A stretch of DNA of 64,000 nt from an uncultured delta proteobacterium (GCA_963789265.1 CAWBKB010000001.1:2336001-2400000); one strand, 5' to 3'; shown: positions 27,243-42,546, counted from the stretch's first letter. A program made the numbers and translations. The notes: generated by a model from the sequence alone, not told the origin.

Positions 27243-27320
27243 ACAGCCCTCTCCAGTTGGTAAAGCCTTTCTATAGAATAGGATTGTTAACTGAGGGGTC
27301 CAAAATGCCGAATACCTCGG

Positions 27321-28487
27321 CTATCTCATTGCTTTTTTTCGCGTGGAATCGCTGCCCTGTGCTGCGATGGCTATGTGAACATCAGAGGAGACAGTTGAGG
27401 CCAGGTCCAAATCAGGTTGACGAGTCCCAGCCTGTTCTCGTCGTCGGCCTATTCCGCTCCTCGTCTGAATCATTTCGGCGATGATGGCAACAGCTAACTC
27501 CTGAGGAGTCTCTCCCCCGATGTGAAGTCCAATCGGCGAATGCACACGCCGAAAATCTTCCTCGCTGAACCCTTCCTTGAGCAGCGTTTGGAACACCACT
27601 GCTGTCTTGCGCCTTGAGCCTATCATTCCGATATAGCGTGCAGGTGTCCTCAAAGCTTGCTCCAGGACGGCCTTGTCATAGGCATGTCCTCTCGTGACAA
27701 TAATGAGGTAGCTATCGTCGTCTATGGGCAGATCAGACAAGGCGCCTCCGTACGAATCTAGGACGATAATCTCGTCGGCCTCGGGAATCTTTACGGACGA
27801 CGCGAATTCGGATCGGTCATCAAGCACAATCACTTTGAAATCAAGGAACGAGGCAAAACGCGCGACCCAAACACCTACATGTCCGGCGCCAAACATATAG
27901 ACTGTACCAGTAGGTTTGATCCACTCGAGAAGAACAGGACATTCCCATCCAGCAAGCTCAGTTAATTGAGCTGCCTTCAGCGCGCGTCTACGGCGCATGG
28001 ACTCGATCAAATCGAGGCACTCAGGGAGTTCCCCTATCCGAAGGCCCGTCCTATCCATCAGAGAATGGTTGAGTCGGTACGAACTGGAGCCCCCGACAGG
28101 CATGGGGACCTCGGAGACAAGATAGGCGGAACCTTTGGTTTGCGTAATATCCGCGAGGCATCGGATGATTTCGTGAAACAGGACGTTGTTGCCATCAACG
28201 TACTCGACCAGGACATCCCCTTCTCCTCCGCAAACCATTTCGCCGGCGCAAAAGGAGAAGACCTCTCGATATGAGGTCCTTGTCTCGATAGCACTGAGTG
28301 CCAACTCCCTCACCCTTGCCTCAAACGATCCCCCTCCGATGGTTCCTACCATTTTCCCTGCCTCATCAATCAAGAGGCGGGTCCCAACATCTCGGGGGCA
28401 GGAACCGTTTACGGCGAGGATGGTGGCCAGAGCCAAAGGTCGGCCTTGAACCAGTTGTTCAGTTGCAGTCTTCCAAATTTCTGACAT
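27321..28487 (-). CDS. XdhC family molybdoenzyme maturation factor
   Basis: GTIGGG, CGG, FGAGHVG, TRGH, YIGMIGSRRK, SPIGL, GETPQELA. Confidence 0.9.
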   Translation of the reverse strand: MSEIWKTATEQLVQGRPLALATILAVNGSCPRDVGTRLLIDEAGKMVGTIGGGSFEARVRELALSAIETRTSYREVFSFCAGEMVCGGEGDVLVEYVDGNNVLFHEIIRCLADITQTKGSAYLVSEVPMPVGGSSSYRLNHSLMDRTGLRIGELPECLDLIESMRRRRALKAAQLTELAGWECPVLLEWIKPTGTVYMFGAGHVGVWVARFASFLDFKVIVLDDRSEFASSVKIPEADEIIVLDSYGGALSDLPIDDDSYLIIVTRGHAYDKAVLEQALRTPARYIGMIGSRRKTAVVFQTLLKEGFSEEDFRRVHSPIGLHIGGETPQELAVAIIAEMIQTRSGIGRRREQAGTRQPDLDLASTVSSDVHIAIAAQGSDSTRKKAMR

Positions 28488-28562
28488 CCTCGTGCTCCCT
28501 TAAATCCAGCGACACTGTTGCCTGCGGTACGGATTGCACATAAGCCAAGCTCTTCAAAATTA

Positions 28563-29071
28563 CTAATTTGCAACTTGAGCTTGTGCCTGTGTGACCCAGT
28601 CTTTGATTCTTTTCGTGGGTGGAACCGTGCCCATTGCAACTACCTTTTCATTGATCATAAGAGCGGGCGTCCGGACAAAGCCGTACTTTACGATCTCCTT
28701 CAAATCAGTCACATGTTCAACGGATGCGGGAACGTCCATCTCAGTTAACACTTGCTTTACAGTCTGCTCCAGTCGATTGCACTGGGAGCACCCCGGACCG
28801 AGAACCACAATGCGCAATGATGTTACCGGGGCTTCTTTGTACGGCTGGCCCAGGAATTTCCTGAACTCCCTGAGGAATGCCTCACGATACTCTTGCATCG
28901 CCCCACTCTCGCGATGTAGTTCTTCTCGGATAATCTCTGCAGCAGGGCATCCTGGATCTCCTCGTCGGCCCTCTCCGCATGAGACAGGGCAATTTCCTCG
29001 ATTGCCTCTTTCAGTCCCCTGAGACCGATCTTGTCGCCACCAACCCAAATTTGACTTCCGTCGTCAGCCAT
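28563..29071 (-). CDS. Small thioredoxin-like (MTH895/redox-disulfide-2 type) protein with N-terminal extension, 2-nt indel near 28908
   Basis: KIGLRGL...NYIA joins SGAMQEYREAF; VLGPGCSQC, TPAL. Confidence 0.8.
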
Positions 29072-29094
29072 TTCCGAGCACCTCTGCACCATAG

Positions 29095-29805
29095 CTAGAA
29101 TGCGAATCCAATACTTGGAAACAGCGCCCCAGCGGCAATGTAAATGCCCACAGCAGCGAGAAGCGCTCCCGCAGCCTTCTTGAGTACTAGGTTAGCGACA
29201 TGCATTCGCGTAGAAGTTATGAGATGTTTGGCCGCTCCCGCGGACGTTCCGACTGCGAGGATGAGCAAGCAATGGCCGATGCCGTAGAACAGCATCATAA
29301 TACCGCCGAAAAGCGGTCCTTTGAGAGGAATAACGCTTACGATCAGGAGCAGGGCCGGACCCGTGCACGGAAGCGACACGAGACCGAACATGAAACCGAA
29401 CAGAGCGGCCCCGAGATAACCCGTGTACCTGGGCAGCTTGTCCTGTGAGATCGGCAGTTGGATGTGGAAAATGTCCATGAAATGTAGGCCAAGCAGAACA
29501 CAAATCGCGGCCACTACGTACACCATGTAATCGGATTGCAGGAACGGAGCGGCAGCCAACCCCACACTGAAGAGAACGGCCAGCTCTACACTGAAGCCCA
29601 GAATGAACACGAGTGAAAACAAAAATGACTTCCATGTGGTCACTTCTTCATCCATACCGCCGATGAAGCCGATCAGAAGCGGGACCATCACTATTACGCA
29701 GGGATTCATCGCTGTGAGCGCTCCCCCCGCAAATGAACCGCCCCCTGCCAACCAAATGCTACCCGAAGAAACCCACTGTTGAACGACGGCGAATAATGAC
29801 TCCAT
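29095..29805 (-). CDS. ccdA: CcdA / DsbD transmembrane electron transporter
   Basis: NPCVIVMVP and LPCTGP Cys pair; multiple TM helices. Confidence 0.88.
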   Translation of the reverse strand: MESLFAVVQQWVSSGSIWLAGGGSFAGGALTAMNPCVIVMVPLLIGFIGGMDEEVTTWKSFLFSLVFILGFSVELAVLFSVGLAAAPFLQSDYMVYVVAAICVLLGLHFMDIFHIQLPISQDKLPRYTGYLGAALFGFMFGLVSLPCTGPALLLIVSVIPLKGPLFGGIMMLFYGIGHCLLILAVGTSAGAAKHLITSTRMHVANLVLKKAAGALLAAVGIYIAAGALFPSIGFAF

Positions 29806-29956
29806 GTCTAGACTCCTTGGTTCAATTCACAACCTTGACCAATTTTCTGATGAAGGACTCAAGATTGTTGAGGTTTACTGTGTCTTGAGAATCCCTGAGC
29901 CGGGCCGTCCGAGCCCGGATCAGGGATGTCTCCGAAGGTATCGCTTGTCCATCTCG

Positions 29957-30415
29957 CTACCACGGCCTCCCTTGTGGTGCCTTAGCCTGAGGTACCGGAG
30001 CCGGAGTAGCCCCCTGCGTTTGGCCAGGGACGCCCATCTTGGCAAAAATCTGCGCTATTTGTTCACGTTCGAGTGTGCCCTCGTTTCTGAAGAACTCTTT
30101 CCCGGTGGGCAACAGAAATACTTGAGTGGGCATCATACGAATCCTGAAATCCCTTACCAAAGCTTTATTGGCGTCCATATCAACCGGCATGACGAACGCC
30201 TTGCCTGCATAAGCTTTTGCCATGTCCCTCAAAATCGGTTTCATGTACTTGCACGGTATGCACCAGCCTCGTCCGAATTCCAACAGTATAGGCACATGCT
30301 TCGACATCAATGTCTTTAGATCAATTCTTCCCTCAGCAGCGTAACCCGGTGAAATAACGATCAATGAAGCCATTATGAGGCCGAACACTACTGCCACACC
30401 TAGTTTTTTCTGCAT
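29957..30415 (-). CDS. Exported thioredoxin family protein
   Basis: Signal peptide; WCIPC; MPTQVF; GGAGG RBS. Confidence 0.88.
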   Translation of the reverse strand: MQKKLGVAVVFGLIMASLIVISPGYAAEGRIDLKTLMSKHVPILLEFGRGWCIPCKYMKPILRDMAKAYAGKAFVMPVDMDANKALVRDFRIRMMPTQVFLLPTGKEFFRNEGTLEREQIAQIFAKMGVPGQTQGATPAPVPQAKAPQGRPW

Positions 30416-30627
30416 CACGAAAACCTCCATGCTTTTCTTATTCAAATTCTTCGATTGAGATTATCTATTGACACCCCTCTCGCGGCATCGAGGAACGCCA
30501 AATTTGGAAATGCCAGTTTGTCTTCAATTCCGACGTCACGCGATAGCTCGTGCATGCGGGCCCAGGACTCAAGGCACGTGCTCTTCGCTCGGATTCAAGG
30601 AGCTCAGTCAGGGTTGTTGATCAGGAA

Positions 30628-31099
30628 TCAGATCAAAAGAACGCAGGTAAGCCCAAGGGGAGCAGGAGAATAAAAGCGCGCACTACTCCCCAAGTCTATC
30701 AATAGCGGAGTGCCTCTTGCTGCAACACAGTGACTCGTGAGATGAGGAATGAGAGTGTCACAGCGAGCAGATTTCGATTGGCGTTGGAATTCGCTGAACC
30801 GGCCACCGGTCGGATCTGAGGTGATAGCGGCACGGGGAATAGTTGGGCACTTATGCTTCTTGCAGCAACAATTGGAATTCCCGCCTTGGCCCTCGGCAGT
30901 ACCCAGAGGCATGCCGGAGACTTCACCACGATCATGAGATGCAGTGACCCTGAGGGCAAGGGGGTCAATTCCAATAACACGAAGCGGACGAAGAATCTCG
31001 CGGGCGCAGAAGAAACCCTGTCCCCGTCATGAGTTGGCAACCAAGCACCAGAGCCATGACGAGACCTGTTGAGCTTTTGTGTGCACCGATATTCTTCAT
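30628..31099 (-). CDS. Hypothetical Cys-cluster protein, probable +1 frameshift near 31012
   Basis: GGAG-ATG MKNIGAHK..LVMALVLGCQLMTGTGF joins FCAREILRP..NCCCKKHKCP. Confidence 0.45.
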
Positions 31100-31293
31100 G
31101 CTCCAACTATCTCACAGTCGGCATATAGCCTCGTTGTCGTACGCCCCGGCTCCTTCCGTTTTTGCCGAGTCCTCCGATCAACGATCCGTGGCAAGTTACC
31201 GTATCCTGGAGGCATTCCTACCACAGCACCCCACCACAGTCAAGTCCGAATCATCGAGAGACCAACCATTTTCAACTCTGCTCTGTGTTCCGC

Positions 31294-31530
31294 TTAAGAA
31301 GACAACCAGTTCAAGATTTCTGATTCCTTGGGTACTTTGCCGGCCACCTTGACTTCGCCATCTACTACCAAGCCAGGAGTCATGAAAACACCGTGTTGGG
31401 CAATCACCTTGAGATCCTGGACATAAAACACTTCCGCATCCAAACCATGCTGCTTGACTACGTCCTGAACCAGGTCGTAGAGTTTGTGGCATTTTGCTCA
31501 GCCCACGCCTAAAACTTCTACCTTCTTCAT
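31294..31530 (-). CDS. Selenocysteine-containing small thioredoxin-like protein (UxxC), 78 aa
   Basis: GGAGG RBS; MKKVEVLGVG-U-AKCHKL..TPGLVVDGEVKVAGKVP; in-frame TGA at 31500-31498 aligns with Cys of LGPGCSQC in the paralog at 28563. Confidence 0.88.
31458..31480 (-). promoter_or_regulatory. Putative bacterial SECIS hairpin
   Basis: mRNA CUACG-A-CCUG-GUU-CAGG-A-CGUAG starting 17 nt after UGA; G first in loop. Confidence 0.75.
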
Positions 31531-31672
31531 TAAGTCCTCCGTTCGTGACACCGCAACAGCGGTTTTGTTTTATTATACCTTGAGCGATCGCAATTCCCGC
31601 GATTCGTGCTCATCTTTTTTTCTGTACAGGCCAAGACACCGGATCTGATCCGCACAGAACTATAACGGCCGC

Positions 31673-32476
31673 TCACCCCTGAGTGCCGGCGCGACGTAAA
31701 ACATATCCCTCCGCTCCCTGTGCAATTTCTTCGGCCAACGCAAACTCCTCCGTACTTAGCTCACCTAGTTCAAATGATGCTCCCAGCGCTTCGCTCAGCC
31801 CTTCTTTGATCGCTGCGCCTACCTCGTTAGGCCCTACGTGTACTCCCAAAATTTCCCCTATGGAGGTGACTTTCCTGCGAAGTTCCAGACGAAACATTTC
31901 TAGAGAATGACCGTCAGACAAAAAAATTTCGGCCAGACAATCAATCTGAGGTTCAATTGCCAGCGAACCGTGCTGGAGGACAGAAGAGCCAATCCAGGTC
32001 TGGGCACTGCCTACGAACTTTTTCCCGCGGCACACGATTTCTCCAGCAGCAGGACGCATAAAGCACACCGCTGGAAGGGAAGACTTACTTTTTCCTATGT
32101 ATGCGTCTGCCTCAATTCCCAAGGACCGTAAACCGATCACCAGTCCTTTGCTGATAAGTTGGTACGCACCGTCGGCAGAGAAAGGGATGCCGTCATGCAC
32201 GCCGCCGATTACTGCGTAGGTCAAGTCACCCAGATGCAAAACGGCGCGGCCCCCGGTAGGCCGGTGGACCACATCCAGGCCCCAGCGCCGACATGCAATA
32301 GGGTCAGGACCTCTTCTCCTTTGAAAATAACCAAGCGAAACCGCCGGCGGATTCCATTGGTACAGGCGTAATGTCGGTGGAGACTTCCCCTCAGCGTGGA
32401 GCTTTAGGAGAGCCTGATCGACAGCCATGTTCATTGTTCCGGACGAGATGCCGGTAAGTAACCGCCAAGTTCTCAC
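31673..32476 (-). CDS. Lipoate-protein ligase / octanoyltransferase (LplA/LipM family)
   Basis: NMAVD, PTLRLY, RPTGGRAVLH, KKFVGSAQ, LQHGS. Confidence 0.9.
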   Translation of the reverse strand: MRTWRLLTGISSGTMNMAVDQALLKLHAEGKSPPTLRLYQWNPPAVSLGYFQRRRGPDPIACRRWGLDVVHRPTGGRAVLHLGDLTYAVIGGVHDGIPFSADGAYQLISKGLVIGLRSLGIEADAYIGKSKSSLPAVCFMRPAAGEIVCRGKKFVGSAQTWIGSSVLQHGSLAIEPQIDCLAEIFLSDGHSLEMFRLELRRKVTSIGEILGVHVGPNEVGAAIKEGLSEALGASFELGELSTEEFALAEEIAQGAEGYVLRRAGTQG

Positions 32477-33351
32477 GACAACTCCTTGAAAAACGTCGAA
32501 GCATCATAGGAACTGCGCACCAGTGGACCCGAGGCTACGCTCCGAAATCCCAGATCTAATGCGAATCGCCGCCAGGTGGCGAACTCTTCGAGTTCAACAT
32601 AACGGGCTACAGGAGCGTGCTTAAGGGAAGGAGCAAGGTACTGGCCTAATGTTAGCATGCTGCAGCCCGCTTCTCTCAAAGCCCGTAAAACATTCTCCAC
32701 CTCGGAGGGTTGCTCCCCCAAACCCAGCATGAGGCCGGACTTGGTTACCATGTCTGGATCTATGTCTTTGATGTTCTTGAGAATCTCCAGGGACCGTTCG
32801 TATTTCGCCCTTGGTTTTATCTTCCTGTGAAGTCGCGGCACCGTATCAAGGTTATGAGCCAAGATATTCGGCCCCTCCTGCACTACCTCAACCAATGCTT
32901 CGTGTGATCCTCCGAAGTCCGGTATGAGCAGCTCAATCGTTGTCCCTGGTGAGTGCCGGCGCAATGCTTTGACTGTTTGAGCGTAATGACTGGCGCCCCC
33001 GTCGGGCAAATCGTCTCTCGTTACGGAAGTAATTACCGCGTGACTGATGCCCATTTCAGCGACTGCTAGGGCCAACCATTTCGGCTCATCCTTCTCGGGA
33101 GGTGTCGGGGACTTGCCGTGTTTGACAGCACAGAATGCACAGCCCCTGGTACACACATCCCCCAAAATCATGAAAGTGGCTGTATGGTTGGAAAAGCACA
33201 CCCCCCGATTGGGGCATTGTGCTTCCTGACACACGGTGGGCAATCCGAACTTGGCCAGGAGCTGCGCGGTCTCTTGGACCCTTTTCTCGCCCAAGCCCCG
33301 CTTGGCCTGTGTTACTTGCCGGATCAACCACGTAGGGGCGCCTTGCTTCAT
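32473..33351 (-). CDS. lipA: Lipoyl synthase
   Basis: CQEAQCPNRGVC, CTRGCAFC, RSSY. Confidence 0.96.
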   Translation of the reverse strand: MKQGAPTWLIRQVTQAKRGLGEKRVQETAQLLAKFGLPTVCQEAQCPNRGVCFSNHTATFMILGDVCTRGCAFCAVKHGKSPTPPEKDEPKWLALAVAEMGISHAVITSVTRDDLPDGGASHYAQTVKALRRHSPGTTIELLIPDFGGSHEALVEVVQEGPNILAHNLDTVPRLHRKIKPRAKYERSLEILKNIKDIDPDMVTKSGLMLGLGEQPSEVENVLRALREAGCSMLTLGQYLAPSLKHAPVARYVELEEFATWRRFALDLGFRSVASGPLVRSSYDASTFFKELS

Positions 33352-34742
33352 TGTCTCACCTCTTCGGGCGGGATGTGGATAGCCTGGCAGTGCAACGCTT
33401 GGGCTGTTTCCAGCACGGCTTCAGATAGAGTAGGATGCGTATGGATTGTGTCCATGATGGCCTTGCTCGGCAAATTCCCTCGCATGGCCACGGCAATCTC
33501 GGCTACCAAATCGGCAGCATGGGCTCCGATGACGTGACATCCCAATATCTCGTCAGTTCGGGAGTCAACAATAATCTTGACCAACCCTTCCAGTTCTCCT
33601 ATGGCCTGAGCCATCCCCAGGGACTTGAAAGGGAACCGAGCAACTTTGATGGGGTGATGCGATGCCGCCTCCTCTTCCGACAGGCCTACCGCTGCATATT
33701 CGGGCAGGCTGAAAACACACCGAGGAATTACACGATAATCCATTTTGCTCGCTCGGCCCAAGGCGTGTTCTGCTGCGCAGATGCCTTCCGCGAAGGCGAC
33801 GTGGGCCAAAAGCCAGCCCCCGATTACGTCTCCGGCAGCGTAGAGGCCCGGAATATTGGTTTTGAGATGCTCGTCCACCACAATTCTGCCCTTATCCATC
33901 TCCACGCCCAATTCATGCACGCCGATTCGATCTGGATTGAATCTTCTGCCTACCGCCTGGATAATGGTGTCGGGGGTCAATTCCGAGCCGTCTGAGAGTC
34001 TTACGACGAAGCCCTCGTCGGTCACATCCACTGAAACCACTTGTATCCCGCAGAAAACCTTGACTTTGCGCCGCTGCAGGATGCCTTGGAGATATGTTGA
34101 TATTTCGGAATCTTCGACCGGTAAGAGTCTCTCCATAGCTTCAATTATAGTTACCTGACAATTTAGCTCGCGGAAGATTGCCGCCATTTCCACCCCTACC
34201 GCTCCGCCCCCGACGACCATCAGGTGCTTGGGTAGATAGGTGATGTCCAGCACCTCGTCGGCTAAGAAAACCCGCGGATCGGATGGAATTACAGACAGGC
34301 CCGCTGGACTGGAACCACTTGCGATAACTATTTTCGCTGCTTCCACGGAGTGGACCTCCCCATTCTTTTCCACCTCGATCCGGTTCGGAGAAATCAGCCT
34401 CCCTTGGCCTTCTACCAGAGCAATGCGGTTGGCCTGAAACAAACGTTCGATGCTGCTCCGCAATCCTGCCACGATCCGTGCTTTGCGGGAAATTATTGCT
34501 CTGATATCCGGGGTGGGGCTAAGTTGATGGAATCCATATTCGCGGGCCCGACGAACAGACCTGGCTACCTCAGCAGAGGCTCGCACCGCTTTGGTCGGAA
34601 TGCAACCCCAGTTCAGGCAAACGCCTCCCACGAACTTGGCTTCAACCACTGCAACCCTAGCGCCCAGTTGAGCTGCTCGGATTGCGCCTTCATAGCCGGC
34701 CGGTCCTCCTCCGAGAAACGCTATGTCAAACTTTTCTCCCAT
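33348..34742 (-). CDS. lpdA: Dihydrolipoyl dehydrogenase
   Basis: GGGPAGY, GGVCLNWGCIP, GGGAVG, HPTLSE. Confidence 0.93.
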   Translation of the reverse strand: MGEKFDIAFLGGGPAGYEGAIRAAQLGARVAVVEAKFVGGVCLNWGCIPTKAVRASAEVARSVRRAREYGFHQLSPTPDIRAIISRKARIVAGLRSSIERLFQANRIALVEGQGRLISPNRIEVEKNGEVHSVEAAKIVIASGSSPAGLSVIPSDPRVFLADEVLDITYLPKHLMVVGGGAVGVEMAAIFRELNCQVTIIEAMERLLPVEDSEISTYLQGILQRRKVKVFCGIQVVSVDVTDEGFVVRLSDGSELTPDTIIQAVGRRFNPDRIGVHELGVEMDKGRIVVDEHLKTNIPGLYAAGDVIGGWLLAHVAFAEGICAAEHALGRASKMDYRVIPRCVFSLPEYAAVGLSEEEAASHHPIKVARFPFKSLGMAQAIGELEGLVKIIVDSRTDEILGCHVIGAHAADLVAEIAVAMRGNLPSKAIMDTIHTHPTLSEAVLETAQALHCQAIHIPPEEVRQ

Positions 34743-34752
34743 GGGGTACTTC

Positions 34753-35184
34753 TTACTCGACGACAATGGTCGGTTGGACGACCAGTTCTGACTTGAGGGA
34801 CTGGTTAATGGTCGAGTATTTGAGAGCCATATCCAAGGCACGCTTCACTACCTCTACTACTCCCGGCTTCTTGCTCCGGACGACCAGTTTGGGGCGCAAT
34901 GTTATTCTCTTAAAATCCGAAGTCTGGTCTATAAACTCCTCGACTTCGCCCACAGCCTCACATTCGAGGGAAATCAAATCGATCTTGAAGCGCTCCATGG
35001 CCCAAACCACCATCTCGTGGTAGCAGGTATTGCTCGCTGCCATAAAAGCATCTTCCGGGGTGAGTATGTTGGGCAAGCCGTACAGAGCAGGGGGCGCAGA
35101 AAACTCCATCTCTACACCATTCCCGCACCACGTGTATCCCTTATGTTCGCCGCGCCATTCTACGCGATTGGTATAGGTAGGCAT
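34753..35184 (-). CDS. OsmC/Ohr family protein
   Basis: TPEDAFMAASNTC, ITLRP, INQSLKSE. Confidence 0.82.
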   Translation of the reverse strand: MPTYTNRVEWRGEHKGYTWCGNGVEMEFSAPPALYGLPNILTPEDAFMAASNTCYHEMVVWAMERFKIDLISLECEAVGEVEEFIDQTSDFKRITLRPKLVVRSKKPGVVEVVKRALDMALKYSTINQSLKSELVVQPTIVVE

Positions 35185-35301
35185 TTATCTTCATCTCCGT
35201 TCTAAGTCGTTTGAATTCTCTTATTCTTGTGTTTCAAGATTTCTTTACCGTAAATCCAGGGACCTTCGTGAGAAACTCTGTGTCCATAGGCTTCTCTTGC
35301 C

Positions 35302-35460
35302 TCAGAACAACCACTTCGCTGCGAGGCTCGCCAGCACAATAGCCGCGGCAGCGAAAAGGATATAAGGAGCCCCCTTGATTTCCTCGGTCGCATGCTCATC
35401 GGTATGCCTCGAAGTACATCCTGAGCAGTCGTTACACGACGGTCCAGGTTCGTTGTTCAT
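35302..35460 (-). CDS. 52-aa membrane peptide with CxxCxxC (below ORF-track cutoff)
   Basis: AGGAG RBS; MNNEPGPSCNDCSGCTSRHTDEHATEEIKGAPYILFAAAAIVLASLAAKWLF. Confidence 0.65.
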   Translation of the reverse strand: MNNEPGPSCNDCSGCTSRHTDEHATEEIKGAPYILFAAAAIVLASLAAKWLF

Positions 35461-35621
35461 GTGAATCTCCTGAAAATTCTAATTCGCCTGTCCCTTCATG
35501 CCTTACTTATATTCGGTATTTCGAGCAGGCAACTGAAACATCAGTGTCGAAGGCTCATTTGATTGCCATGCCATCAGTGTCAGGCCACAGAGTTCGCAAA
35601 GACGAACACAACCTCACCTTA

Positions 35622-36029
35622 TTATTGCAAGACCTCATCCACAGCTTTGGCGATTTCCTCGGCCACGGCTTGTACAGCGGCATTTTCCTGAGAGCCGGGA
35701 TGGCGTCGGTTTGAGAGGCCGTCAATTCCGTGCTTCTCCAGGATATCGGGGATGAGCAGGGACCTGTTAGGTTTTCCCGAAAGCCTTTCAGTGGATTTAG
35801 CCGCACACAGTTTCTCGCAACCATCCACTGTGATTGTTGGGAATTTGCTCGCAAACTGCCGTTCGTCTTTTCCTCCTGCGATAAACAACGGGAGGCAGAT
35901 AGTCACGGTGAGGCCGGGCCTCAGTTCATCCAGGACTTTGCGGCAGGCGATTCGAGATACTGTTCCACCAGGTAACTCCTCGCCACTGCATGATACGATC
36001 CCTACTTTGAGCACCTTGATTTCCATCAC
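35622..36029 (-). CDS. DGC-domain (putative zinc-binding) protein
   Basis: VSCSG, ICLP, ITVDGCEKLCA. Confidence 0.85.
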   Translation of the reverse strand: MMEIKVLKVGIVSCSGEELPGGTVSRIACRKVLDELRPGLTVTICLPLFIAGGKDERQFASKFPTITVDGCEKLCAAKSTERLSGKPNRSLLIPDILEKHGIDGLSNRRHPGSQENAAVQAVAEEIAKAVDEVLQ

Positions 36030-36439
36030 TCATTCCTCTCTGCCGCAAGTCTGTCCACTTCCTCTGCTATCTCCTGAGCAGCCAGCGCTGCAAGCTGTTG
36101 ACCCGCGTCGTTTAACTCAACGATTCCCTCCGGTTTGAGATCCTTGTGATTTTTGTAGAAGTCAATCGCCCTGTGGGCCTTGGAGACTGTCACCCCAAGG
36201 GATTCCACATTCTTTCGAGCACAATCGAACGGGCACCCATCAAGGGTGATTACCGGGTTCTCTGTTACAAGTTTCTTGGCATCCGGATCTTCGATCATTA
36301 AGAGAGGGAGGCAAGTGGTTACAGCCACCCGGGGCCGCAGACTTTCGACGAGTTCGTACGCCGCCTCCCTGCCGACAGAACCGTATACCTTTCCGATCCC
36401 GCTGCAAGGCAGGACCACAACTTGCTTCTTGTTTGTCAT
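36026..36439 (-). CDS. DGC-domain (putative zinc-binding) protein
   Basis: LPCSG, TCLP, ITLDGCPFDCA. Confidence 0.85.
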   Translation of the reverse strand: MTNKKQVVVLPCSGIGKVYGSVGREAAYELVESLRPRVAVTTCLPLLMIEDPDAKKLVTENPVITLDGCPFDCARKNVESLGVTVSKAHRAIDFYKNHKDLKPEGIVELNDAGQQLAALAAQEIAEEVDRLAAERNE

Positions 36440-36888
36440 GTCTTTTTCTTCATCTCCTCTTGGATTTTTTCCTTCATGAGCTCGAGGTACCCATTCCCGT
36501 CCAGAAGTTGACCGCGGTCTTTTTCCAGGCCGGTCAATTCAATCTTGTATATCCAACCTTCACCGTACGGGTCCTGATTGATTAGATATGGACTGGCCTC
36601 CATTTCGGGGTTTACCTCGACTATCTTGCCTGTTACCGGCGAGATCATGCCGAAAGTGGCTTTAATCGTCTCGATCTTTCCGAGTTCCTGCCCCTGTTTC
36701 ACCTCTGCGCCGGGCTCTATCGTCTCCAGAAAAGCCACATCGCCTTTACTCTTCTGCAGGAAATCGGATAGCCCTACTGTGGCCACGTTGCCGTCCACGG
36801 CGGCCCAAAAGTCATCCCCGTTGTACAGGTAACCCACCTTTACCGTGAAGACAAACTTGTCGTATGTCGTTTCCAAAAATTCTTGCAC
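36436..36888 (-). CDS. gcvH: GcvH-like lipoyl carrier protein
   Basis: TVGLSDF, IETIKA (lipoyl-Lys), SPVTGKIVEVN, INQDPYGEGWI. Confidence 0.88.
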   Translation of the reverse strand: MQEFLETTYDKFVFTVKVGYLYNGDDFWAAVDGNVATVGLSDFLQKSKGDVAFLETIEPGAEVKQGQELGKIETIKATFGMISPVTGKIVEVNPEMEASPYLINQDPYGEGWIYKIELTGLEKDRGQLLDGNGYLELMKEKIQEEMKKKT

Positions 36889-36903
36889 GTTTCTCTCCTT
36901 TCG

Positions 36904-37245
36904 TTACGCTAAAATATTGCCGACTTCCTCCACGATCTTGTTGACAGCGATATACCCTGCATACTTCGGCTCACCGTCAACGAGGACCAAAGGAGGAGGA
37001 TACTTGCCGGTCACCAAGAGTTGCCCTGATTCGCTGGCTTTCTCTTCAGGCGATTGGCTCAGATCGATGTATTCCACGCTGGTCTTACCTGGATAGGTTG
37101 CTTCCAGGTCGTCCTGTAACTCCTTTACCTTTTGCTGGAGCATCTTCACGTACTCAGGATTAGCTCCGGGGCTGCCACAAGTCGCGCAGCCGCCACCGCC
37201 GGCCATATTGAGAATTTTCACCGTTACGAGATGTTTGCCTTCCAT
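36904..37245 (-). CDS. Thioredoxin-fold protein with GCATC motif
   Basis: GGGGCATCG, VEYIDL, PPPLVLVDGEP; GAGGAG RBS. Confidence 0.75.
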   Translation of the reverse strand: MEGKHLVTVKILNMAGGGGCATCGSPGANPEYVKMLQQKVKELQDDLEATYPGKTSVEYIDLSQSPEEKASESGQLLVTGKYPPPLVLVDGEPKYAGYIAVNKIVEEVGNILA

Positions 37246-37457
37246 GGGCGTGCTCTCCTCTGCAAATAGCTTTTTCTTTCACGTTTGCCGTCTCTAAAGG
37301 CAAGTGATTTCCACTCCTCTTACGGTGGGATGACCAGCCCGCATTCTTTCAGAACTCCAGTGAACGATCTGAAGGGAATCGTGGCCAGTTCATCGAAAGC
37401 TTGCGCTACAACAAATGACAATTTCTTATTCAGATATCAGCTTTCGTTCCTGAGACT

Positions 37458-37485
37458 ATTTCGTATTTGTCGAAATCCTCAAATA
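37458..37485. promoter_or_regulatory. Candidate ArsR operator(s)
   Basis: Overlapping palindromes ATTTCG-N7-CGAAAT and TATTTG-N10-CAAATA upstream of the lipoate module. Confidence 0.45.
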
Positions 37486-37551
37486 CTAAATGCCAAAATT
37501 TAACCTCTGTGCCTCTCTCTTTGCTCCCCGGTCATCGGCTCCCCACGAGGA

Positions 37552-37881
37552 TCATGCCACAAGCACCGAACGCTGATCTTCAAGCCTTTTGATTACAACG
37601 TCTTCCACGCATCGTGCAAAATCAATGGCGCAAGGCATGGTAAGTCTGTACATGATCTTGAGCCCGTCCCGCCGATCCGCGACGAGACCGGCCTTTTTCA
37701 AGATAGAAAGATGCTTGGAAACATTAGAGATCTCAGTTCCTACATGGGCCACTATATCGCAGACGCACATTTCCCTTGTTTCAAGGAACTCGACAATTCC
37801 CAGGCGAATAGGGTGCCCCAATGCCTTGAAAACCTCGGCTTTTAAGCGGAGCCTTTCGTTTTCTCTTTCATTCACTCCCAT
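37552..37881 (-). CDS. ArsR/SmtB family transcriptional regulator
   Basis: FKALGHPIRL, EMCVCDI (As(III)-type CVC site), SNVSKHLSILKKAGLV. Confidence 0.92.
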   Translation of the reverse strand: MGVNERENERLRLKAEVFKALGHPIRLGIVEFLETREMCVCDIVAHVGTEISNVSKHLSILKKAGLVADRRDGLKIMYRLTMPCAIDFARCVEDVVIKRLEDQRSVLVA

Positions 37882-37893
37882 GTTGATCTCTCC

Positions 37894-37940
37894 ATTCCGC
37901 CAATTGGTTAAATAGTAAATGATGAATCTTCTCTCGTCAA
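37894..37940 (-). promoter_or_regulatory. Sigma70-type promoter with overlapping imperfect palindrome
   Basis: TTGACG (37940-37935) - 17 bp - TACTAT (37917-37912); ATTTAACCAA/TTGGCGGAAT over the predicted +1. Confidence 0.7.
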
Positions 37941-38427
37941 GAGTTCTTTTCAGGTCCGCGATAACATTCTTGCTTACGCATGGAATCGTTGGCCTTTTAT
38001 CATTCCGAGAGGCGAAATCCAATGTCCTGCGAAAAGCAATCCAAATCGTGCCTAGAAGAAAAGATCGCTTTCCGCGGGACGTTGGGTCGATTCCAAGCTG
38101 CGGCCGGAAGCAACTGTCGCAAAACGATTTTGAGCGCGGAATCGTCCGATCTCGGTACACGCGCTGAAGCCGCCGGGTTGCTTTCAGTCGCCCCTGTGGG
38201 GCTCAAACACAGATCGTTCCCGGAGGAACATTCGATAGTAGCCGGTCCCGCGCGGAACGCGGGCTCTCATTCCTCTCAATTTCTGTCGGCACACGGGGAA
38301 GCTACTGACCGAGATTGCAGAGATTTCGGCCCTGCGAGCTTTCCAGGCGATCACAGCAATGTTGACTGGGTACGTAAAATCCGGTAGTGACCTTAAGCCT
38401 TGATACGCGGAACTCGTACTGCGGGAC

Positions 38428-39057
38428 ATGAACTCTGTGAAGGAGAGTATCGGCTTGAAACTTCAGTACAAATTGGCAATTGCAGCAACGGGTCTGGCGG
38501 CCGCGGTGGTGGCATTCAGCTCCGGCACTAATCATAATTTGGTGGATACATTGACCCTTGCCGCGGGATCGGGCGATCTCTCCAGTGTCGGGGCTATTCT
38601 AGATCGAGGCGCCTCTGTTGACGGCTGTGACCGGGAAGGGAAAACGGCCCTGATGCGTGCTTCCCGAAACGGGCACAAGGAGATGATAAAATTCTTGCTG
38701 CAGAAAGGGACTCAGGTCAATGCAAGAGGCAAATACGGCAAAAGCGCCTTAATGCCGGCATCGGCAGCAGGTCACAACGAAGTGGTAAAACTGCTCTTGG
38801 ACGCCGGGGCCGAGATCAACGCAAGAGACCGGTACAGCCAAACCGCTTTAATGTGCGCGTCCCTCAGAGGCCATGTGCATGTTGTCGAAACCCTTCTGGC
38901 CAGGGGTGCGGATATGAACGTCAGGTCCAGAAAAGGCTTCACGGCAATGAGTCTCGCATCTGAACAGGGCCATGCAGAAGTGGTGGAGCTCTTGTTCAAG
39001 AAACAACCCGATCGGTATTTTTGTGATTTTCAGGTGGAACATGCCAGGTATCAGTAG
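38428..39057 (+). CDS. Ankyrin-repeat protein
   Basis: Repeated GKTALM-AS--GH-EVVKLLL--GA units. Confidence 0.88.
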   Translation: MNSVKESIGLKLQYKLAIAATGLAAAVVAFSSGTNHNLVDTLTLAAGSGDLSSVGAILDRGASVDGCDREGKTALMRASRNGHKEMIKFLLQKGTQVNARGKYGKSALMPASAAGHNEVVKLLLDAGAEINARDRYSQTALMCASLRGHVHVVETLLARGADMNVRSRKGFTAMSLASEQGHAEVVELLFKKQPDRYFCDFQVEHARYQ

Positions 39058-39145
39058 AATCGGATGGAATGAAGGCCCGCACGGATGGTTATCCTCAATG
39101 CCGGGCCCGAAAAATTGCACTCCAGAGCAACCCGGGAGGTGACAT

Positions 39146-39589
39146 GTGAAATATCCTGTCCTTGCCGCCAGACTGTTCATCGGAGGTCTGTTCATCTATG
39201 CTAGTGTCTACAAGATAATCGATCCGGCGAGCTTCGCGGTTTCTATACGGAACTACATGATAATTCCGGCTGCTTGGAGCAATGTTGCTGCCCTGACGCT
39301 GCCCTGGATCGAAGTGCTTGTCGGGACATTCTTAATATTCGGGATACAAACAAGACCGTCTGCGTTGATCACGACAGGAATGCTTGCAGCTTTCCTCGGC
39401 GCTTTAGTATATGCATACCACATCGGGCTTGATATTGACTGCGGTTGCTTTTCATCGGCAGTCACTTCCGGCGGTCGGATAGGAATCACCCACATTGTGA
39501 GGGACGCAGCGCTGGTCCTGGTATCCTTCTTTATTTTGGTGTCAGACCGCGGCAACTTCAGTGTTTTGAGGCATCGGCGCTCGAGTTAG
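39146..39589 (+). CDS. MauE/DoxX family membrane protein
   Basis: FIYASVYKIIDP, LPWIE, GLDIDCGCF, RD. Confidence 0.88.
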   Translation: MKYPVLAARLFIGGLFIYASVYKIIDPASFAVSIRNYMIIPAAWSNVAALTLPWIEVLVGTFLIFGIQTRPSALITTGMLAAFLGALVYAYHIGLDIDCGCFSSAVTSGGRIGITHIVRDAALVLVSFFILVSDRGNFSVLRHRRSS

Positions 39590-39818
39590 ACCGCACGAAC
39601 CTGGAGGTGGGAACCGCGGCCTATGAACACGCACATAATAATTGAGGTTTCATTGGGGGGCCCCGAAAGCGTTAATGGATGCCGGCGCACGGAAGACCTA
39701 TGGCCGGGTGGCCTTCTAATGGTAAGACAAACACCTTAGCCGTCAATTGTTGATGGCGGGCAAGATGCCCACCCTACTGACTCTAATCCCGGGGGACGTC
39801 CGTCCCGAAGGTCGTTTG

Positions 39819-40097
39819 TGATACCGATTCGCCGTCGAGCAAGTAAGAATCCTAAAACAGGACGTGGGGGGGCGGTCCCGCCCAGGCAGGATCGCCTGTC
39901 CTGCGTTCCGCGCGATCACTCCAGACTCCGATCCGGGGTATGTAGGGGCGGACCCGCGTGTCCGCCCGAGGCAGACACATAGGTCTACCCCTACAATTGA
40001 TGCCCGCATACGCGGACATGACGATATGTAGGGGCGGGTTTCAAACCCGCCCCTACCGGAAACACAGTATCACCTGCTTGAAAGCGAATTCCTATAA
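39819..40097. mobile_element. MITE family C copy carrying GTAG-type REP palindromes
   Basis: TGATACCGATTCGCCGTCGAGCAAGTAA ... TCACCTGCTTGAAAGCGAATTCCTATAA; internal GTAGGGGCGGGTTTCAAACCCGCCCCTAC. Confidence 0.7.
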
Positions 40098-40188: not shown

Positions 40189-41352
40189 CTATTGGGCTAG
40201 TTGCTCCTTGACCGAAAGGGCCACCTTGTACAGGATGGTGAGTATCAAGAAGCCCAAGGCCCACACACCCAGGGTTATCGACATTTCAGTCGGGGTCGGC
40301 ACATACTGAGTTATAGTGTTAAACGGCGAAGGGATGAAGCCCGTAAGGACCAGTGTGATGCCCTTCTCTATCCACAGAGAGACAAAGACGAACACGCATG
40401 CTATGGGCAAGACTTTTTCGCTGTTTCGAGTCCTGGGGTTGACCAGCAGAATCACAGAAAGCAGGCCCAACACCGCTGAAGTCCACATCCAGGGTGTGAG
40501 GTTCGAATGTCCGCGCAGGCCCCAGAAGAGGTAGTCGAAATTCTCCATGTGTTCGGGTATCCGGCTGTAGAATACCGTGAAGATTTCGCACAGGACGAAA
40601 AATACGCTGATGACCATCGCGTAAGTGACGATCTTTGACAGAGTCTGAATGGCTTCCCAACCCGCATCAAACTTGGTGTACTTTCGCAGAAAGACACATA
40701 TTAGAATTAGGAACGCTGGACCTGCGGCAAACGCGGAGCCAAGGAACCGCGGAGCCATAATAGCCGTGAGCCAGAATCCTCTCCCGGGCAGACCGGCATA
40801 GAGAAACGCCGTTACCGTGTGAATGCTGATAGCCCAAGGAATGGAGATATATATGAGTGGCTTCACCCATTTGGGAGGGGGTGCATCCCTCCGCTCGGCT
40901 CCCAGCACCGCCCAGCCGATCACGATGTTGAGAAAGAGATACCCGTTCAATACCAACAAGTCCCAAAATAGAACCGAATTAGGCGTGGGGTACAGCAGGA
41001 CGTTGAACGCTCTCCAGGGTTGCCCTAAATCAATGATGACGAACGAGACACACATGGTGACTGAAGCCACGGCCAGAAACTCCCCTAGAATGGTGATCTT
41101 GCCGAACACCTTGTAATTATGGAGATAATAAGGCAAGACCAACATAACGGCGGAGGCCGCTACGCCGACGAGAAACGTAAACTGGCCTATATAAAGACCC
41201 CATGAAATGTTTCGGCTCATCCCCGTGATGCCCAATCCGTAGCTCAACTGCCTGAGATAGTTAAGAAAACCTATTCCCAGGATGATCAGCAGAAGCAGTA
41301 CCCATAGTTTGTAGCTTCGACTTCCGGTTAACGCTTTTTCGAGCATGGCCAC
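40189..41352 (-). CDS. dsrP: DsrP, NrfD/PsrC-family membrane subunit
   Basis: WGLYIGQFTFLVGVAASAV, SIHTVTAF; operon position. Confidence 0.93.
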   Translation of the reverse strand: MAMLEKALTGSRSYKLWVLLLLIILGIGFLNYLRQLSYGLGITGMSRNISWGLYIGQFTFLVGVAASAVMLVLPYYLHNYKVFGKITILGEFLAVASVTMCVSFVIIDLGQPWRAFNVLLYPTPNSVLFWDLLVLNGYLFLNIVIGWAVLGAERRDAPPPKWVKPLIYISIPWAISIHTVTAFLYAGLPGRGFWLTAIMAPRFLGSAFAAGPAFLILICVFLRKYTKFDAGWEAIQTLSKIVTYAMVISVFFVLCEIFTVFYSRIPEHMENFDYLFWGLRGHSNLTPWMWTSAVLGLLSVILLVNPRTRNSEKVLPIACVFVFVSLWIEKGITLVLTGFIPSPFNTITQYVPTPTEMSITLGVWALGFLILTILYKVALSVKEQLAQ

Positions 41353-41353
41353 C

Positions 41354-42151
41354 TCACAATATGTAATAAACCGATGGTTGTGTTCCTAGTTGGGGTCTGC
41401 GCCGAATGGACGGATTCTTGCGAAGTAGTTCGCTGACTTCGGAGTTGGGATCCGCAAGATCACCGAAATTCAATGCCTTGTATTCCTTGCAAGCATCCAC
41501 GCAAGCCGGGATAAGGCCTTTAGCCAGCCTTTCATCGCAGAAGGTGCACTTTTCCACAACGCCGCGCATCCGCGTTGGATATTCGGGATTCAACTCAGTT
41601 TTGATAAAGGGACGCGGATCCCTCCAGTTCAAGTTCCGCGCGCCATAGGGACAAGCAGCCATGCAGTACCGGCATCCGATACACCTGTGGTAGTCCATCA
41701 TGACAACGCCGTCCGCACGCTTGAACGTGGCCTTGGTTGGGCATACACGTACGCAAGGAGGATTGTCGCAATGGTTGCAAAGGATGATGAAGGGAAGACC
41801 CTTCATGTTTTCCTTGACATATTCCCTCATGAATTCATTTTCGGCATCCGGAAAAGCATTATCAAATGGAGTCTGCCAGATCCATTTGACCTCGTGCTTG
41901 GGATCGGGCATAGTAGGGACATTGTGGGTGCGGTTGCAAGCATCCACACAGAGTCTGCAACCCTCTTTTGCCTTGAGGCACTTCTTTTGGTCCACCACCA
42001 TGCCCCATCTCTTACCCTTGAGGGCTTGAGGACCGATTACGTATTCCGGCTGCCCACCCTGGGCAACGGCATCGACCAGCGGCTTAGCCGCCAACCCCAA
42101 CACGGAGAGACCGGCGACCTGTAAGAATCGTCTTCTTGTGCTATCCATCAC
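41354..42151 (-). CDS. dsrO: DsrO, Tat-exported 4Fe-4S protein
   Basis: TRRRFL Tat motif; CNHCDNPPCVRVCP, CIGCRYCMAACP, KCTFC. Confidence 0.93.
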   Translation of the reverse strand: MMDSTRRRFLQVAGLSVLGLAAKPLVDAVAQGGQPEYVIGPQALKGKRWGMVVDQKKCLKAKEGCRLCVDACNRTHNVPTMPDPKHEVKWIWQTPFDNAFPDAENEFMREYVKENMKGLPFIILCNHCDNPPCVRVCPTKATFKRADGVVMMDYHRCIGCRYCMAACPYGARNLNWRDPRPFIKTELNPEYPTRMRGVVEKCTFCDERLAKGLIPACVDACKEYKALNFGDLADPNSEVSELLRKNPSIRRRPQLGTQPSVYYIL

Positions 42152-42542
42152 TTATTGCTCCTCCCGGCCTCTTTGGTCTCTTTAGGCGCGATATGGCAAT
42201 TCCAACAATCGGGGGATGCCCCCATATAGTTGTGGCATCGATCGCAAAACTCGGCCTTTTTAGTGTGGCACTTGGTACAAGTATTCTGAAGGCTGATGTC
42301 GTACTTTTTGCCGGTGGAACTGACATAGACTCGCTGGTTTTCCCGCACTGCATGGTCTCGCCAGGTGGCCAGCAACTGCATGTGAGAAGATTTCATGTAA
42401 GGCGTCGGCTCCACACACGCTTTCTCGGTCGTCCCAACCTCGAGCTTGGGAGGCACGGATGCTTTCCCCCTGTTGTACCAGAAAGCGGACGTGACCAGCA
42501 CAACAAAGATGATTAGCCCTATGGCGATTTTCACTCCGTTCA

Positions 42543-42546
<4 letters not shown>
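42148..42546 (-). CDS. dsrJ: DsrJ, triheme cytochrome c
   Basis: CTKCH, CDRCH, CWNCH; HMQLLATWRD. Confidence 0.93.

Follow-up and report, generated by a model that had tools for sequence, protein, structure and literature searches.

What are genes for building, carrying and reducing a protein-bound lipoyl group doing behind an ArsR-type repressor in an arsenic island? The question is raised by a stretch of 64,000 nucleotides from an uncultured delta proteobacterium (GCA_963789265.1 CAWBKB010000001.1:2336001-2400000; here called the window, with coordinates counted from its first letter), in which eleven open reading frames (ORFs), all on the minus strand, occupy positions 31294-37872. Translation of the ORFs and matching against Pfam and NCBIfam found every one of the eleven where a sequence-only reading of this DNA had placed it, in the order ArsR/SmtB repressor, 113-aa thioredoxin-fold protein, GcvH-like lipoyl carrier (here GcvHL), two DGC-domain proteins (DGC1 and DGC2), 52-aa CxxCxxC peptide, OsmC-like protein, dihydrolipoyl dehydrogenase (Lpd), lipoyl synthase (LipA), LplA/LipM-type enzyme and UxxC selenoprotein. 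Ten of these identities are backed by a family match or by conservation, the 52-aa peptide being the one left without a counterpart, and the overlapping stop and start codons noticed earlier correspond to 4-nt overlaps in four gene pairs (GcvHL/DGC1, DGC1/DGC2, Lpd/LipA and LipA/LplA-like), an arrangement that points to translational coupling. The answer favored here, held tentatively and put somewhat short of an even chance, is that the cluster encodes an ArsR-controlled thiol relay running from NAD(P)H through Lpd and the lipoyl group of GcvHL to the DGC proteins.

The argument begins with conservation. A pattern search for DGC1 returned 8 loci, while aligned DGC2 orthologues, used as the query, matched at least 599 stretches, at least 574 of them encoding a relative; the best 80 loci were used for counting, with the window proteins as tblastn queries at E<=1e-6. 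DGC1 and DGC2 were present in all 80 loci and GcvHL in 77, the three misses being contigs that start inside the module. The OsmC-like protein followed with 72/80, and the four-gene order GcvHL-DGC1-DGC2-OsmC-like was kept in 69/80. Lpd was found in 44/80 loci, LipA and the LplA-like protein in 36/80 each, and all seven of these genes together in 29/80. Among the thiol-active neighbors, a Trx_3 protein was detected in 45 of the 80, the 113-aa protein in 25, the membrane transporter CcdA in 20 and an exported thioredoxin in 19. The sequence-only reading had held that an unconserved cluster would count against its proposal; what was found instead is conservation across phyla, tied to neighborhoods of ArsR and the arsenite pump ACR3.

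By the names in the records, the carriers belong to Thermodesulfobacteriota, Nitrospirota, Verrucomicrobiota, Riflebacteria, Aminicenantes, Bacillota, Chloroflexota, Acidobacteriota, Bathyarchaeota and Nitrososphaeria. They are largely anaerobes of sulfidic habitats, and mostly strict ones; cultured carriers, again by record or source names, include Fusibacter sp. 3D3, Desulfitobacterium hafniense, Desulfosporosinus species, Syntrophus gentianae, Caloramator fervidus and Candidatus Formimonas warabiya. Several variants of the module occur. Six archaeal loci (L086, L087, L093, L100, L103 and L109) have the arrangement DGC-DGC-DGC(1-3)-GcvHL without an OsmC gene, and L067, a Methanobacterium by its title, carries the bacterial four-gene order including OsmC. 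In Chloroflexota and Acidobacteriota, the module comes without Lpd, LipA and the LplA-like protein, and its DGC2 bears an extension of ~100 aa containing a CxC motif.

One proposed component did not withstand this comparison. The 52-aa CxxCxxC peptide, counted as part of the system in the sequence-only reading, was matched by tblastn at 0/80 loci, which rules it out as a conserved part; having no counterpart there, the ORF may not be a gene at all. The spacer between DGC2 and the OsmC-like gene in which it lies (35185-35621) measures 437 nt here, as against about 40-90 nt in the closest relatives (42, 66 and 60 nt at L018, L017 and L019), and considering that it holds this non-conserved ORF, it looks like a lineage-specific insertion.

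The carrier itself is the next piece of evidence. Databases name it 'glycine cleavage system protein H'. GcvHL falls below both NCBIfam cut-offs for GcvH (NF002270, 113.3 vs 117; TIGR00527, 100.3 vs 115.85), has no Cys, and keeps the lipoyl Lys76 and Glu73 invariant in 73/73 proteins. A tree was built with IQ-TREE from 93 rows, comprising 73 module proteins, 5 paralogues from this genome and 15 GCV_H matches from five other carrier genomes, with LbpA references outside its sample. In it, all module GcvHL proteins form one clade (100/100 support, branch 0.7), to which five duplicate rows and one further Bathyarchaeota paralogue also belong. The clade is separate from the canonical copies, from the Hdr-linked ones and from a fusion type. 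The separation extends to the genome's own copy between gcvT and gcvPA on contig C8 and to the best-scoring copies of three other genomes, so that the comparison with canonical H proteins urged by the sequence-only reading came out in favor of a distinct carrier. That reading had also suggested looking for such clusters without gcvP: no P-protein (GDC-P) match was obtained in 3/5 of the other carrier genomes, for which completeness is not given, and the remaining two have one. One Bacillota carrier genome has no GCV_H gene above 30 bits and no LipA above cut-off other than those of the module. Judged by its sequence, GcvHL is probably not a glycine-cleavage H protein.

Other GCV_H-domain proteins of this genome deserve mention in their own right. 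Besides GcvHL and the gcvH of C8, there are four further GCV_H-domain genes. One of them (L025:7857-12640; G000:C5) lies beside HdrB-like (CCG), HdrA/MvhD-like, FAD-oxidoreductase and MetF-C-terminal genes, and its product groups with a counterpart in a Desulfobacterium genome (96/88). Two others (L027:7481-8377 and L028:7464-8540; G000:C3 and C1) encode near-identical proteins of 300-360 aa with a divergent GCV_H domain that fall in the fusion-type clade (100/99), and one of the two adjoins subunits of Mrp/Nuo-type antiporters. The one longer relative of GcvHL that turned up, 306 aa in length, has an N-terminus of unrelated sequence, lacks a DGC domain and was set aside as probably a chimeric gene call.

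The constant partners of the carrier are the DGC proteins, and the window's two genes are the only DGC genes in the genome. In DGC2, Cys14, Cys45, Cys71 and Cys75 are all conserved in 80/80 loci; in DGC1, Cys69 and Cys73 are kept in 78/78 and Cys12 in 77/78, and the fourth, Cys43, in 62/78. An AlphaFold2 (AF2) model of DGC2 (pLDDT 91, pTM 0.87) has a flavodoxin-like alpha/beta fold, in whose predicted topology the Cys lie at the C-terminal ends of strands 1-3 and at the start of the next helix; given these positions, they probably cluster on one edge of the sheet. Structural comparison was otherwise of little help. With Foldseek, no PDB structure matched at E<=0.001; a profile run against PDB sequences likewise stayed empty below E 0.6; and a protein-atlas search gave one unnamed cluster at 0.75. 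The best matches across VIA were an uncharacterised Wolinella protein (3pu6, Z 9.0), the C-terminal domains of transketolase and E1-beta (Z 8.3-8.7) and HybD-type proteases (~Z 7), all in a range common for generic folds, and no function is drawn from them for that reason. A predicted complex of DGC1, DGC2 and GcvHL scored 0.00 against a mark of 0.32 and carries no weight either way.

Some loci vary the DGC theme. A C-terminal extension of DGC2 of ~100 aa, with a CxCGSG-type motif and no Pfam match, is seen at L020:8413-9135, L021:8417-9142, L022:8431-9162 and L024:8484-9203. In 15 loci with a long DGC2 (L089-L110), Cys43 of DGC1 is lost, a link without statistical weight since it is probably one lineage event. 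Cys43 of DGC1 and Cys75 of the OsmC-like protein did not covary either (40 with both, 16 and 12 single losses, 0 joint losses).

More telling is a gene fusion. At L045:8119-8985 (plus strand), a 288-aa ORF joins an N-terminal DGC domain to a C-terminal GCV_H domain, an arrangement which argues that the two act together. A search with this protein returned 934 proteins at E<=1e-5, and both PF08859 and PF01597 were present in 120/120 of the matches listed; the sources include Desulfitobacterium hafniense, D. dehalogenans, several Desulfosporosinus species and Desulfofundulus. Fusion proteins of ~285-290 aa are widespread in Clostridia and Bacteroidales (L045, L131-L172), and two additional DGC genes come after the fusion gene. 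A locus search with the D. hafniense fusion protein collected 43 fusion-type loci from Clostridia, Bacteroidales and others, including Fusibacter sp. 3D3, Caloramator fervidus and Candidatus Formimonas warabiya. GcvHL was matched in 43/43 of these, a DGC1-like protein in 42/43, a DGC2-like protein in 40/43 and Lpd in 24/43, with OsmC and LipA each at 0/43. The accompanying genes are familiar: ArsR in 30/43; ACR3, exported thioredoxin and Trx_3 in 15/43 each (the last with the Trx3b query, the SecTrx3 query being best in 3 more rows); a methyltransferase in 10/43; ArsP, CcdA and the LplA-like protein in 9/43 each; and ArsC in 7/43. Across both architectures, the constant core of the system is therefore a lipoyl carrier together with two or more DGC domains, and Lpd usually accompanies them.

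The locus of Fusibacter sp. 3D3 illustrates the fusion type, with ArsR, Lpd (TIGR01350, 506 bits), an unknown 126-aa protein, a 2x[4Fe-4S] ferredoxin, DGC::GcvH, two DGC proteins, an IscA/HesB-like protein, thioredoxin and CcdA in that order. A conserved unknown protein of ~126-129 aa and a 2x[4Fe-4S] ferredoxin with weak HgcB-like matches precede DGC::GcvH at L141:6334-7008 and L045:7446-8122. The ferredoxin gene hints at an input besides NAD(P)H in the fusion-type loci.

The tie to arsenic comes from the regulator and the neighbors. The assignment of the first gene to the ArsR/SmtB helix-turn-helix family is confirmed by HTH_5 and NF033788, and its translation holds a CVC motif before the recognition helix, which we take to be the As(III) site. 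The protein at the head of the cluster is thus predicted to be an As(III) sensor. The controlling DNA is less distinct. A promoter-like site lies upstream of arsR, and the scan that found it gave 5 sites against 6.8 expected from shuffled sequence, not above chance; a terminator scan likewise did not rise above shuffles. An inverted repeat in the spacer behind arsR (37463-37486) is a possible operator, and no 11-mer common to the upstream regions of the window's ars genes was found, the inverted-repeat region included. Across the 80 loci, ArsR occurs within 7 kb in 42, ACR3 in 39 (32 at >=55% identity) and either of them in 55. Clustering of the ORFs of the loci brought out an ArsM-like S-adenosylmethionine (SAM) methyltransferase in 15 loci, a low-molecular-weight-phosphatase-type (LMWP) ArsC in 13, ArsP and Usp in 12 each and a radical-SAM/SPASM enzyme in 8, which makes LMWP-ArsC, ArsP and the ArsM-like methyltransferases repeat neighbors of the module.

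How would such a relay work? The LplA/LipM-type enzyme and LipA would together build the lipoyl group on Lys76 of GcvHL, and Lpd would keep the arm reduced with NAD(P)H. The dihydrolipoyl arm could then service the Cys clusters of DGC1 and DGC2 by dithiol/disulfide exchange, with or without a bound metalloid. From there, the DGC proteins might hand reducing equivalents to the 1-Cys OsmC-fold protein, to CxC/CxxC thioredoxin-fold proteins and to Trx_3/ArsE-type (seleno)proteins, with CcdA and then the exported thioredoxin as a further outlet. That GcvHL is lipoylated, the direction of the electrons, the ligand of the DGC cysteines, the nature of the final substrate and induction by arsenic are all matters that we infer.

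The enzymes called for are recognizable. Lpd has the redox motif CLNWGC and LipA the radical-SAM motif CxxxCxxC, and the window's best LipS2 match reaches 25.8 bits against a cut-off of 270. The third enzyme, which the sequence-only reading had called a lipoyl ligase, does have an LplA/LipM-type catalytic domain; sequence does not separate ligase from transferase, and it could equally possibly be an octanoyl or lipoyl transferase. It is 267 aa long and consists of the catalytic domain only (LplA_large, 75 vs 480; TIGR00545, 31.8 vs 280), among solved structures the Thermoplasma LplA catalytic subunit comes closest to it (2ars, E 3e-13), and no gene for an LplA accessory domain was seen in the cluster. 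At the far end of the module, the Trx_3 gene has an in-frame TGA at codon 11, at the first Cys of the family's CxxC, which gives UxxC. A tRNA-Sec gene at C3:261385-261482 and a hairpin after the UGA accompany the family match, and the earlier claim of a selenoprotein stands.

The module was also described as self-contained, and this holds in part. It does carry its own Lpd, LipA and LplA-like genes, and the wider assembly (6.06 Mb in 9 contigs, 95.6% complete) has a canonical gcvT-gcvH-gcvPA-gcvPB set on contig C8 and an E1-alpha/E1-beta/E2/Lpd cluster with its own LplA-like gene on C4; as had been claimed, the window itself has no gcvP, gcvT or E1/E2 gene. The window LipA, however, is the only intact lipoyl synthase found in the genome. 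The canonical glycine cleavage system and the 2-oxoacid dehydrogenase complex probably draw on it too, and the module is therefore not fully private here. The other lipA, on C3 (G000:C3:704817-705669; L030:7403-8694), is split in two adjacent frames, as in a frameshifted pseudogene or an assembly error.

The thiol relay is preferred because the recurrence of Lpd suggests repeated oxidation and re-reduction, that is, turnover rather than mere binding, because the neighborhoods are full of thioredoxin-fold proteins and CcdA relay components, and because the chemistry has precedent. Several considerations weigh against it. Arsenite chelates dihydrolipoyl groups, and a lipoyl reductant looks self-defeating under arsenite if the DGC proteins can neither remove the metalloid nor withstand it, a point that favors metalloid capture as discussed next. 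Lpd is missing from 36/80 loci, and LipA and LplA from 44/80 each, most Chloroflexota forms included. The DGC fold lacks an informative relative, and its Cys cluster could be a structural Zn or Fe-S site. With LipA as the sole intact copy, part of the cluster may be housekeeping. Finally, the relay is pieced together from sequence and structural models and offers no final substrate that can be named.

Capture and hand-off of arsenite or organoarsenicals is the main rival, an unlikely reading on balance but one with real substance. Here, Lpd would keep the dihydrolipoyl arm ready to chelate As(III) or methylarsenite and pass it to the DGC Cys sites, and perhaps to the ArsD-like CxC protein, for buffering or for delivery to ACR3 or ArsP; the module would then act as a metallochaperone or decoy instead of an electron relay. 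Three-coordinate thiolate sites are typical of As(III) proteins, and DGC1 has three near-invariant Cys and a variable fourth; the fusion places the arm beside the Cys cluster, ACR3 is near in 39/80 loci (32 of them at the identity given above) and ArsP is a repeat neighbor. Capture also accounts better than the relay for the use of an arsenite-sensitive cofactor and for the fact that just three Cys of DGC1 are invariant. Yet a pure binder, working without redox turnover, would need no recurring Lpd, and stoichiometric buffering would be costly.

The 113-aa protein bears on this reading in both directions. It has no Pfam or NCBIfam match at E<=0.001, its closest being a weak one to DUF1462 (E 0.0014). 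The AF2 model (pLDDT 81) shows a thioredoxin fold with the Cys in a flexible, Gly-rich loop after strand 1 (residues 17-27, pLDDT <50), which is where ArsD has them. Cys23 is kept in 25/25 orthologues and Cys20 in 24/25, most having CxC and the window protein and its nearest kin CxxC. Its VIA matches are almost all thioredoxin folds, led by 1xg8 (Z 8.9), and the match to ArsD (3kgk, Z 8.0, rmsd 3.4 over 85 aligned residues at 20% identity) is no better than those to ordinary thioredoxins. With only two Cys kept and the three-Cys site of ArsD missing, the protein was rejected as an ArsD.

A quite unlikely alternative is a peroxidase of the kind known from Trichomonas, in which electrons would pass from NADH through Lpd and lipoyl-GcvHL to the OsmC-like protein and on to peroxides arising from arsenic stress, with the DGC proteins as accessories. 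The parts are certainly co-located (OsmC-like 72/80, GcvHL 77/80 and Lpd 44/80), the Cys at the peroxidatic position, Cys54, is invariant (71/71), and there is published precedent: lipoyl groups on proteins are reported to reduce Ohr/OsmC enzymes (PMC5384416), and in Trichomonas hydrogenosomes the L and H proteins are reported to feed OsmC (PMC7946386). According to the former source, the hallmark of the family is a pair of Cys ~60 residues apart. In the module protein, the position of the second Cys is held by a Ser (Ser124) in 71/71 sequences, from which it follows that this is not a canonical Ohr/OsmC peroxidase; the Cys of 2onf, which with 2d7v (both OsmC-like proteins) is its nearest solved chain, lies opposite Ser124. 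Another Cys, Cys75, is found in 59/71, and Glu44 is invariant and Arg65 near-invariant, both candidates for the catalytic Glu and Arg of the Ohr or OsmC subfamily. The Trichomonas protein, TvOsmC, is described as lacking the Arg and Glu of true OsmC (PMC5384416). Moreover, OsmC is absent from 8/80 loci (the six archaeal loci listed above, L045, and L082, which is truncated by a contig end) and from 43/43 of the fusion type, where DGC is never absent. The Ohr/OsmC precedent on which the sequence-only reading had leaned thus fits poorly, the carriers are mostly strict anaerobes, and a peroxidase would leave the two best-conserved proteins, the DGC proteins, without a role.

Distinctly improbable, too, is a role in sulfur or thioarsenate trafficking, in which the lipoyl arm and the DGC Cys would carry sulfane sulfur, as LbpA does in sHdr systems, and act on thioarsenicals or polysulfide-arsenic species, the forms that prevail where sulfide is abundant. 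The carriers do come largely from sulfidic habitats, and in the window dsrMKJOP lies 2 kb off. Lipoate-binding GcvH-like proteins are reported to serve sulfur oxidation (10.64898/2026.10.01.755906), and P. mercurii is reported to have produced potential thioarsenicals from As(III) and As(V) (10.1101/2022.10.17.512643). Against this, the conserved core showed no gene for sHdr, rhodanese, TusA or DsrE, nothing found ties DGC to sulfur, and the tree held no LbpA reference. The weakest reading, that these are general lipoate assembly genes and a spare H protein beside arsenic genes by chance of place, can draw on the database name of GcvHL and on the sole intact LipA, but it is scarcely credible when the same order recurs beside ars genes across phyla, GcvHL forms a separate clade, the module also occurs where no P-protein was found, and elsewhere the genome encodes a canonical glycine cleavage system of its own as well as an E1/E2/E3 cluster that brings along both an Lpd and a ligase-like gene.

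The thiol relay proposed here is best appreciated beside known systems. With the hydrogenosomal L-H-OsmC peroxide reductase of Trichomonas vaginalis (Nyvltova et al. 2016, as cited in PMC7946386; discussed in PMC5384416), it would share an orphan Lpd and a lipoylated H protein that work outside glycine cleavage and are paired with an OsmC-fold protein. Unlike that system, the module is prokaryotic, lies in ars islands under an ArsR-type repressor and carries its own LipA and LplA-like genes; its constant partners are two DGC proteins, whereas OsmC is dispensable and lacks its second catalytic Cys. In Staphylococcus aureus, the GcvH-L/LplA2/SirTM operon likewise pairs a GcvH paralogue tied to stress, and apart from glycine cleavage, with a ligase of its own (PMC12440151), the context reported there being host oxidative stress rather than arsenic. 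No sirtuin or macrodomain was found in the present cluster, where the partners are DGC, OsmC-like, Lpd and LipA proteins.

The sHdr-LbpA systems also resemble the module in having a GcvH-like lipoate-binding protein, dedicated lipoylation genes and a function outside glycine cleavage (PMC10332631, 10.64898/2026.10.01.755906). In agreement with the sequence-only reading, there is no sHdr or other Hdr-like gene in the cluster or among its conserved neighbors, and the module has a canonical LipA, not LipS1/S2; the comparison was made without LbpA in the tree. The nearest experimental lead is the ArsR5-ArsP-ArsE-DGC operon of P. mercurii ND132, which is reported among those significantly differentially expressed with arsenic (preprint 10.1101/2022.10.17.512643). 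It, too, combines ArsR control with a DGC gene and a gene of the MTH895/ArsE family. It has a single DGC gene, termed 'of unknown function', and in the sections of that source cited here no lipoyl carrier, Lpd or OsmC is described.

Two further precedents concern the chemistry. Cussiol et al. reportedly found in 2010 that Ohr is reduced by lipoylated proteins, and Bryk et al. are said to have described, in 2002, an Lpd-SucB-AhpD-AhpC relay in Mycobacterium tuberculosis. Both are reported to follow the scheme proposed for the module, from NADH to Lpd, a protein-bound lipoyl group, a small Cys adaptor and a thiol enzyme. Those relays borrow the E2 of a metabolic complex, whereas here there would be a dedicated GcvH paralogue, DGC adaptors and an arsenic context.

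The features of the window are collected in Table 1. Downstream on the same strand, the module is followed by genes that also include XdhC, an ankyrin protein and a PF04060 Fe-S protein. The ACR3 gene among them is the sole tblastn match to ACR3 in the genome, and with this pump, a second ArsR and an LMWP-type ArsC homologue all lying downstream, 'arsenic island' is a fair label for the region.

Table 1. Module genes, neighboring island genes and candidate control sites, in window coordinates
Feature	Position	Strand	Basis
Promoter-like site upstream of arsR, weak	37912-37940	-	TTGACG-17-TACTAT, 9/12 matches
ArsR/SmtB repressor, CVC motif, cluster head	37552-37872	-	PF01022 (HTH_5) 55.7 bits; NF033788 90.6 vs cut-off 55
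Inverted repeat, 7-nt arms and 10-nt spacer	37463-37486	.	In the 306-nt spacer from arsR to the next gene
113-aa thioredoxin-fold CxxC protein	36904-37245	-	No family at E<=0.001; AF2 model
GcvH-like lipoyl carrier (GcvHL)	36436-36888	-	PF01597 110 bits
DGC-domain protein 1 (DGC1)	36026-36439	-	PF08859 53.7 bits
DGC-domain protein 2 (DGC2)	35622-36029	-	PF08859 58.6 bits
52-aa ORF, CxxCxxC and hydrophobic tail, doubtful gene	35302-35460	-	No family match
OsmC-fold protein, 1-Cys type	34753-35184	-	PF02566 32.3 bits vs 27.5
Dihydrolipoyl dehydrogenase (Lpd)	33348-34742	-	TIGR01350 477.8 bits vs 408.8
Lipoyl synthase LipA	32473-33351	-	TIGR00510 352.5 bits vs 310.25
Single-domain LplA/LipM-type lipoyl/octanoyl transferase or ligase	31673-32476	-	PF21948 103.4 bits
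UxxC selenoprotein, MTH895/ArsE thioredoxin-like (Trx_3)	31294-31530	-	PF13192 87.9; TIGR00412 94.6 vs 62, TGA read as Cys
Thioredoxin with N-terminal hydrophobic leader, probably exported or anchored	29957-30445	-	PF00085 57.8 bits; leader from translation
CcdA/DsbD-type membrane thiol-disulfide transporter	29095-29805	-	PF02683 66.5 bits
Second Trx_3 (MTH895/ArsE) protein, domain at residues 79-152	28563-29048	-	PF13192 83.6, TIGR00412 89 bits
ACR3 arsenite efflux pump	24680-25777	-	TIGR00832 457.9 bits vs 282.8
Second ArsR-family regulator	23108-23563	-	PF01022 30.5 bits
LMW-phosphatase-type ArsC homologue, far end of island	17499-17936	-	tblastn 56.5% identity over 138 aa to an L071 protein (PF01451)

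Other observations in and around the island are of a more general kind. Directly upstream (~2 kb) and on the same strand, positions 40189-45169 hold a dsrMKJOP-like complex with NrfD, 4Fe-4S, HdrD/CCG-like and NarI-like parts and, at the DsrJ position, a 132-aa ORF without a Pfam match; the complex identifies the organism as a sulfate or sulfite reducer. Inside the island, a CoA-disulfide-reductase-like flavoprotein (18191-19618; TIGR03385, 369 bits, below the cut-off of 579) has the ArsC homologue on one side and an ABC transporter on the other. An ankyrin-repeat protein lies at either flank of the module (26670-27242 and 38428-39057), and a third follows the Lpd gene of the 2-oxoacid dehydrogenase cluster on C4 (L029:10515-11198), an odd recurrence near lipoate-linked genes. 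The ~850 nt between the selenoprotein gene and the exported thioredoxin gene (30446-31293) hold no supported ORF and no Rfam match, and a scan of positions 22000-40000 gave no Rfam family at gathering score.

The literature searches yielded no paper that connects ars operons with a GcvH-like protein, DGC proteins or lipoate genes, and the main texts, supplements aside, on Fusibacter 3D3 (PMC9751042) and Paraclostridium (PMC11653729) do not mention the module genes. The cassette thus appears to be undescribed. A broader view is conceivable, though on balance doubtful, in which the lipoyl arm has been recruited as a working part of an arsenic-handling machine and DGC is a metalloid-binding or thiol-exchange domain that docks the carrier. 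With Lpd, these proteins would add to thioredoxin and glutaredoxin a third thiol system in the cytoplasm of anaerobes, one specialized for arsenicals. It could be a reductase or chaperone that depends on the lipoyl group, handles As(III), methylarsenite or thioarsenates, and feeds ACR3 or ArsP and the CcdA export relay.

Should the proposed relay hold true, PF08859 (DGC), which is widespread in anaerobes, would gain its first function, and hundreds of annotations as 'glycine cleavage system protein H' would need correction. It would also mean that a component of ars islands has been overlooked in sulfate reducers, syntrophs, Clostridia, Bacteroidales, Chloroflexota and Bathyarchaeota, groups that control the mobility of arsenic in aquifers, paddy soils and sediments. 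Since cultured carriers exist, the module is amenable to testing now. At its heart lies a paradox, in that the most arsenite-sensitive of cofactors is seemingly deployed just when arsenic is present, and the classic target of arsenite may here serve as a tool against it.

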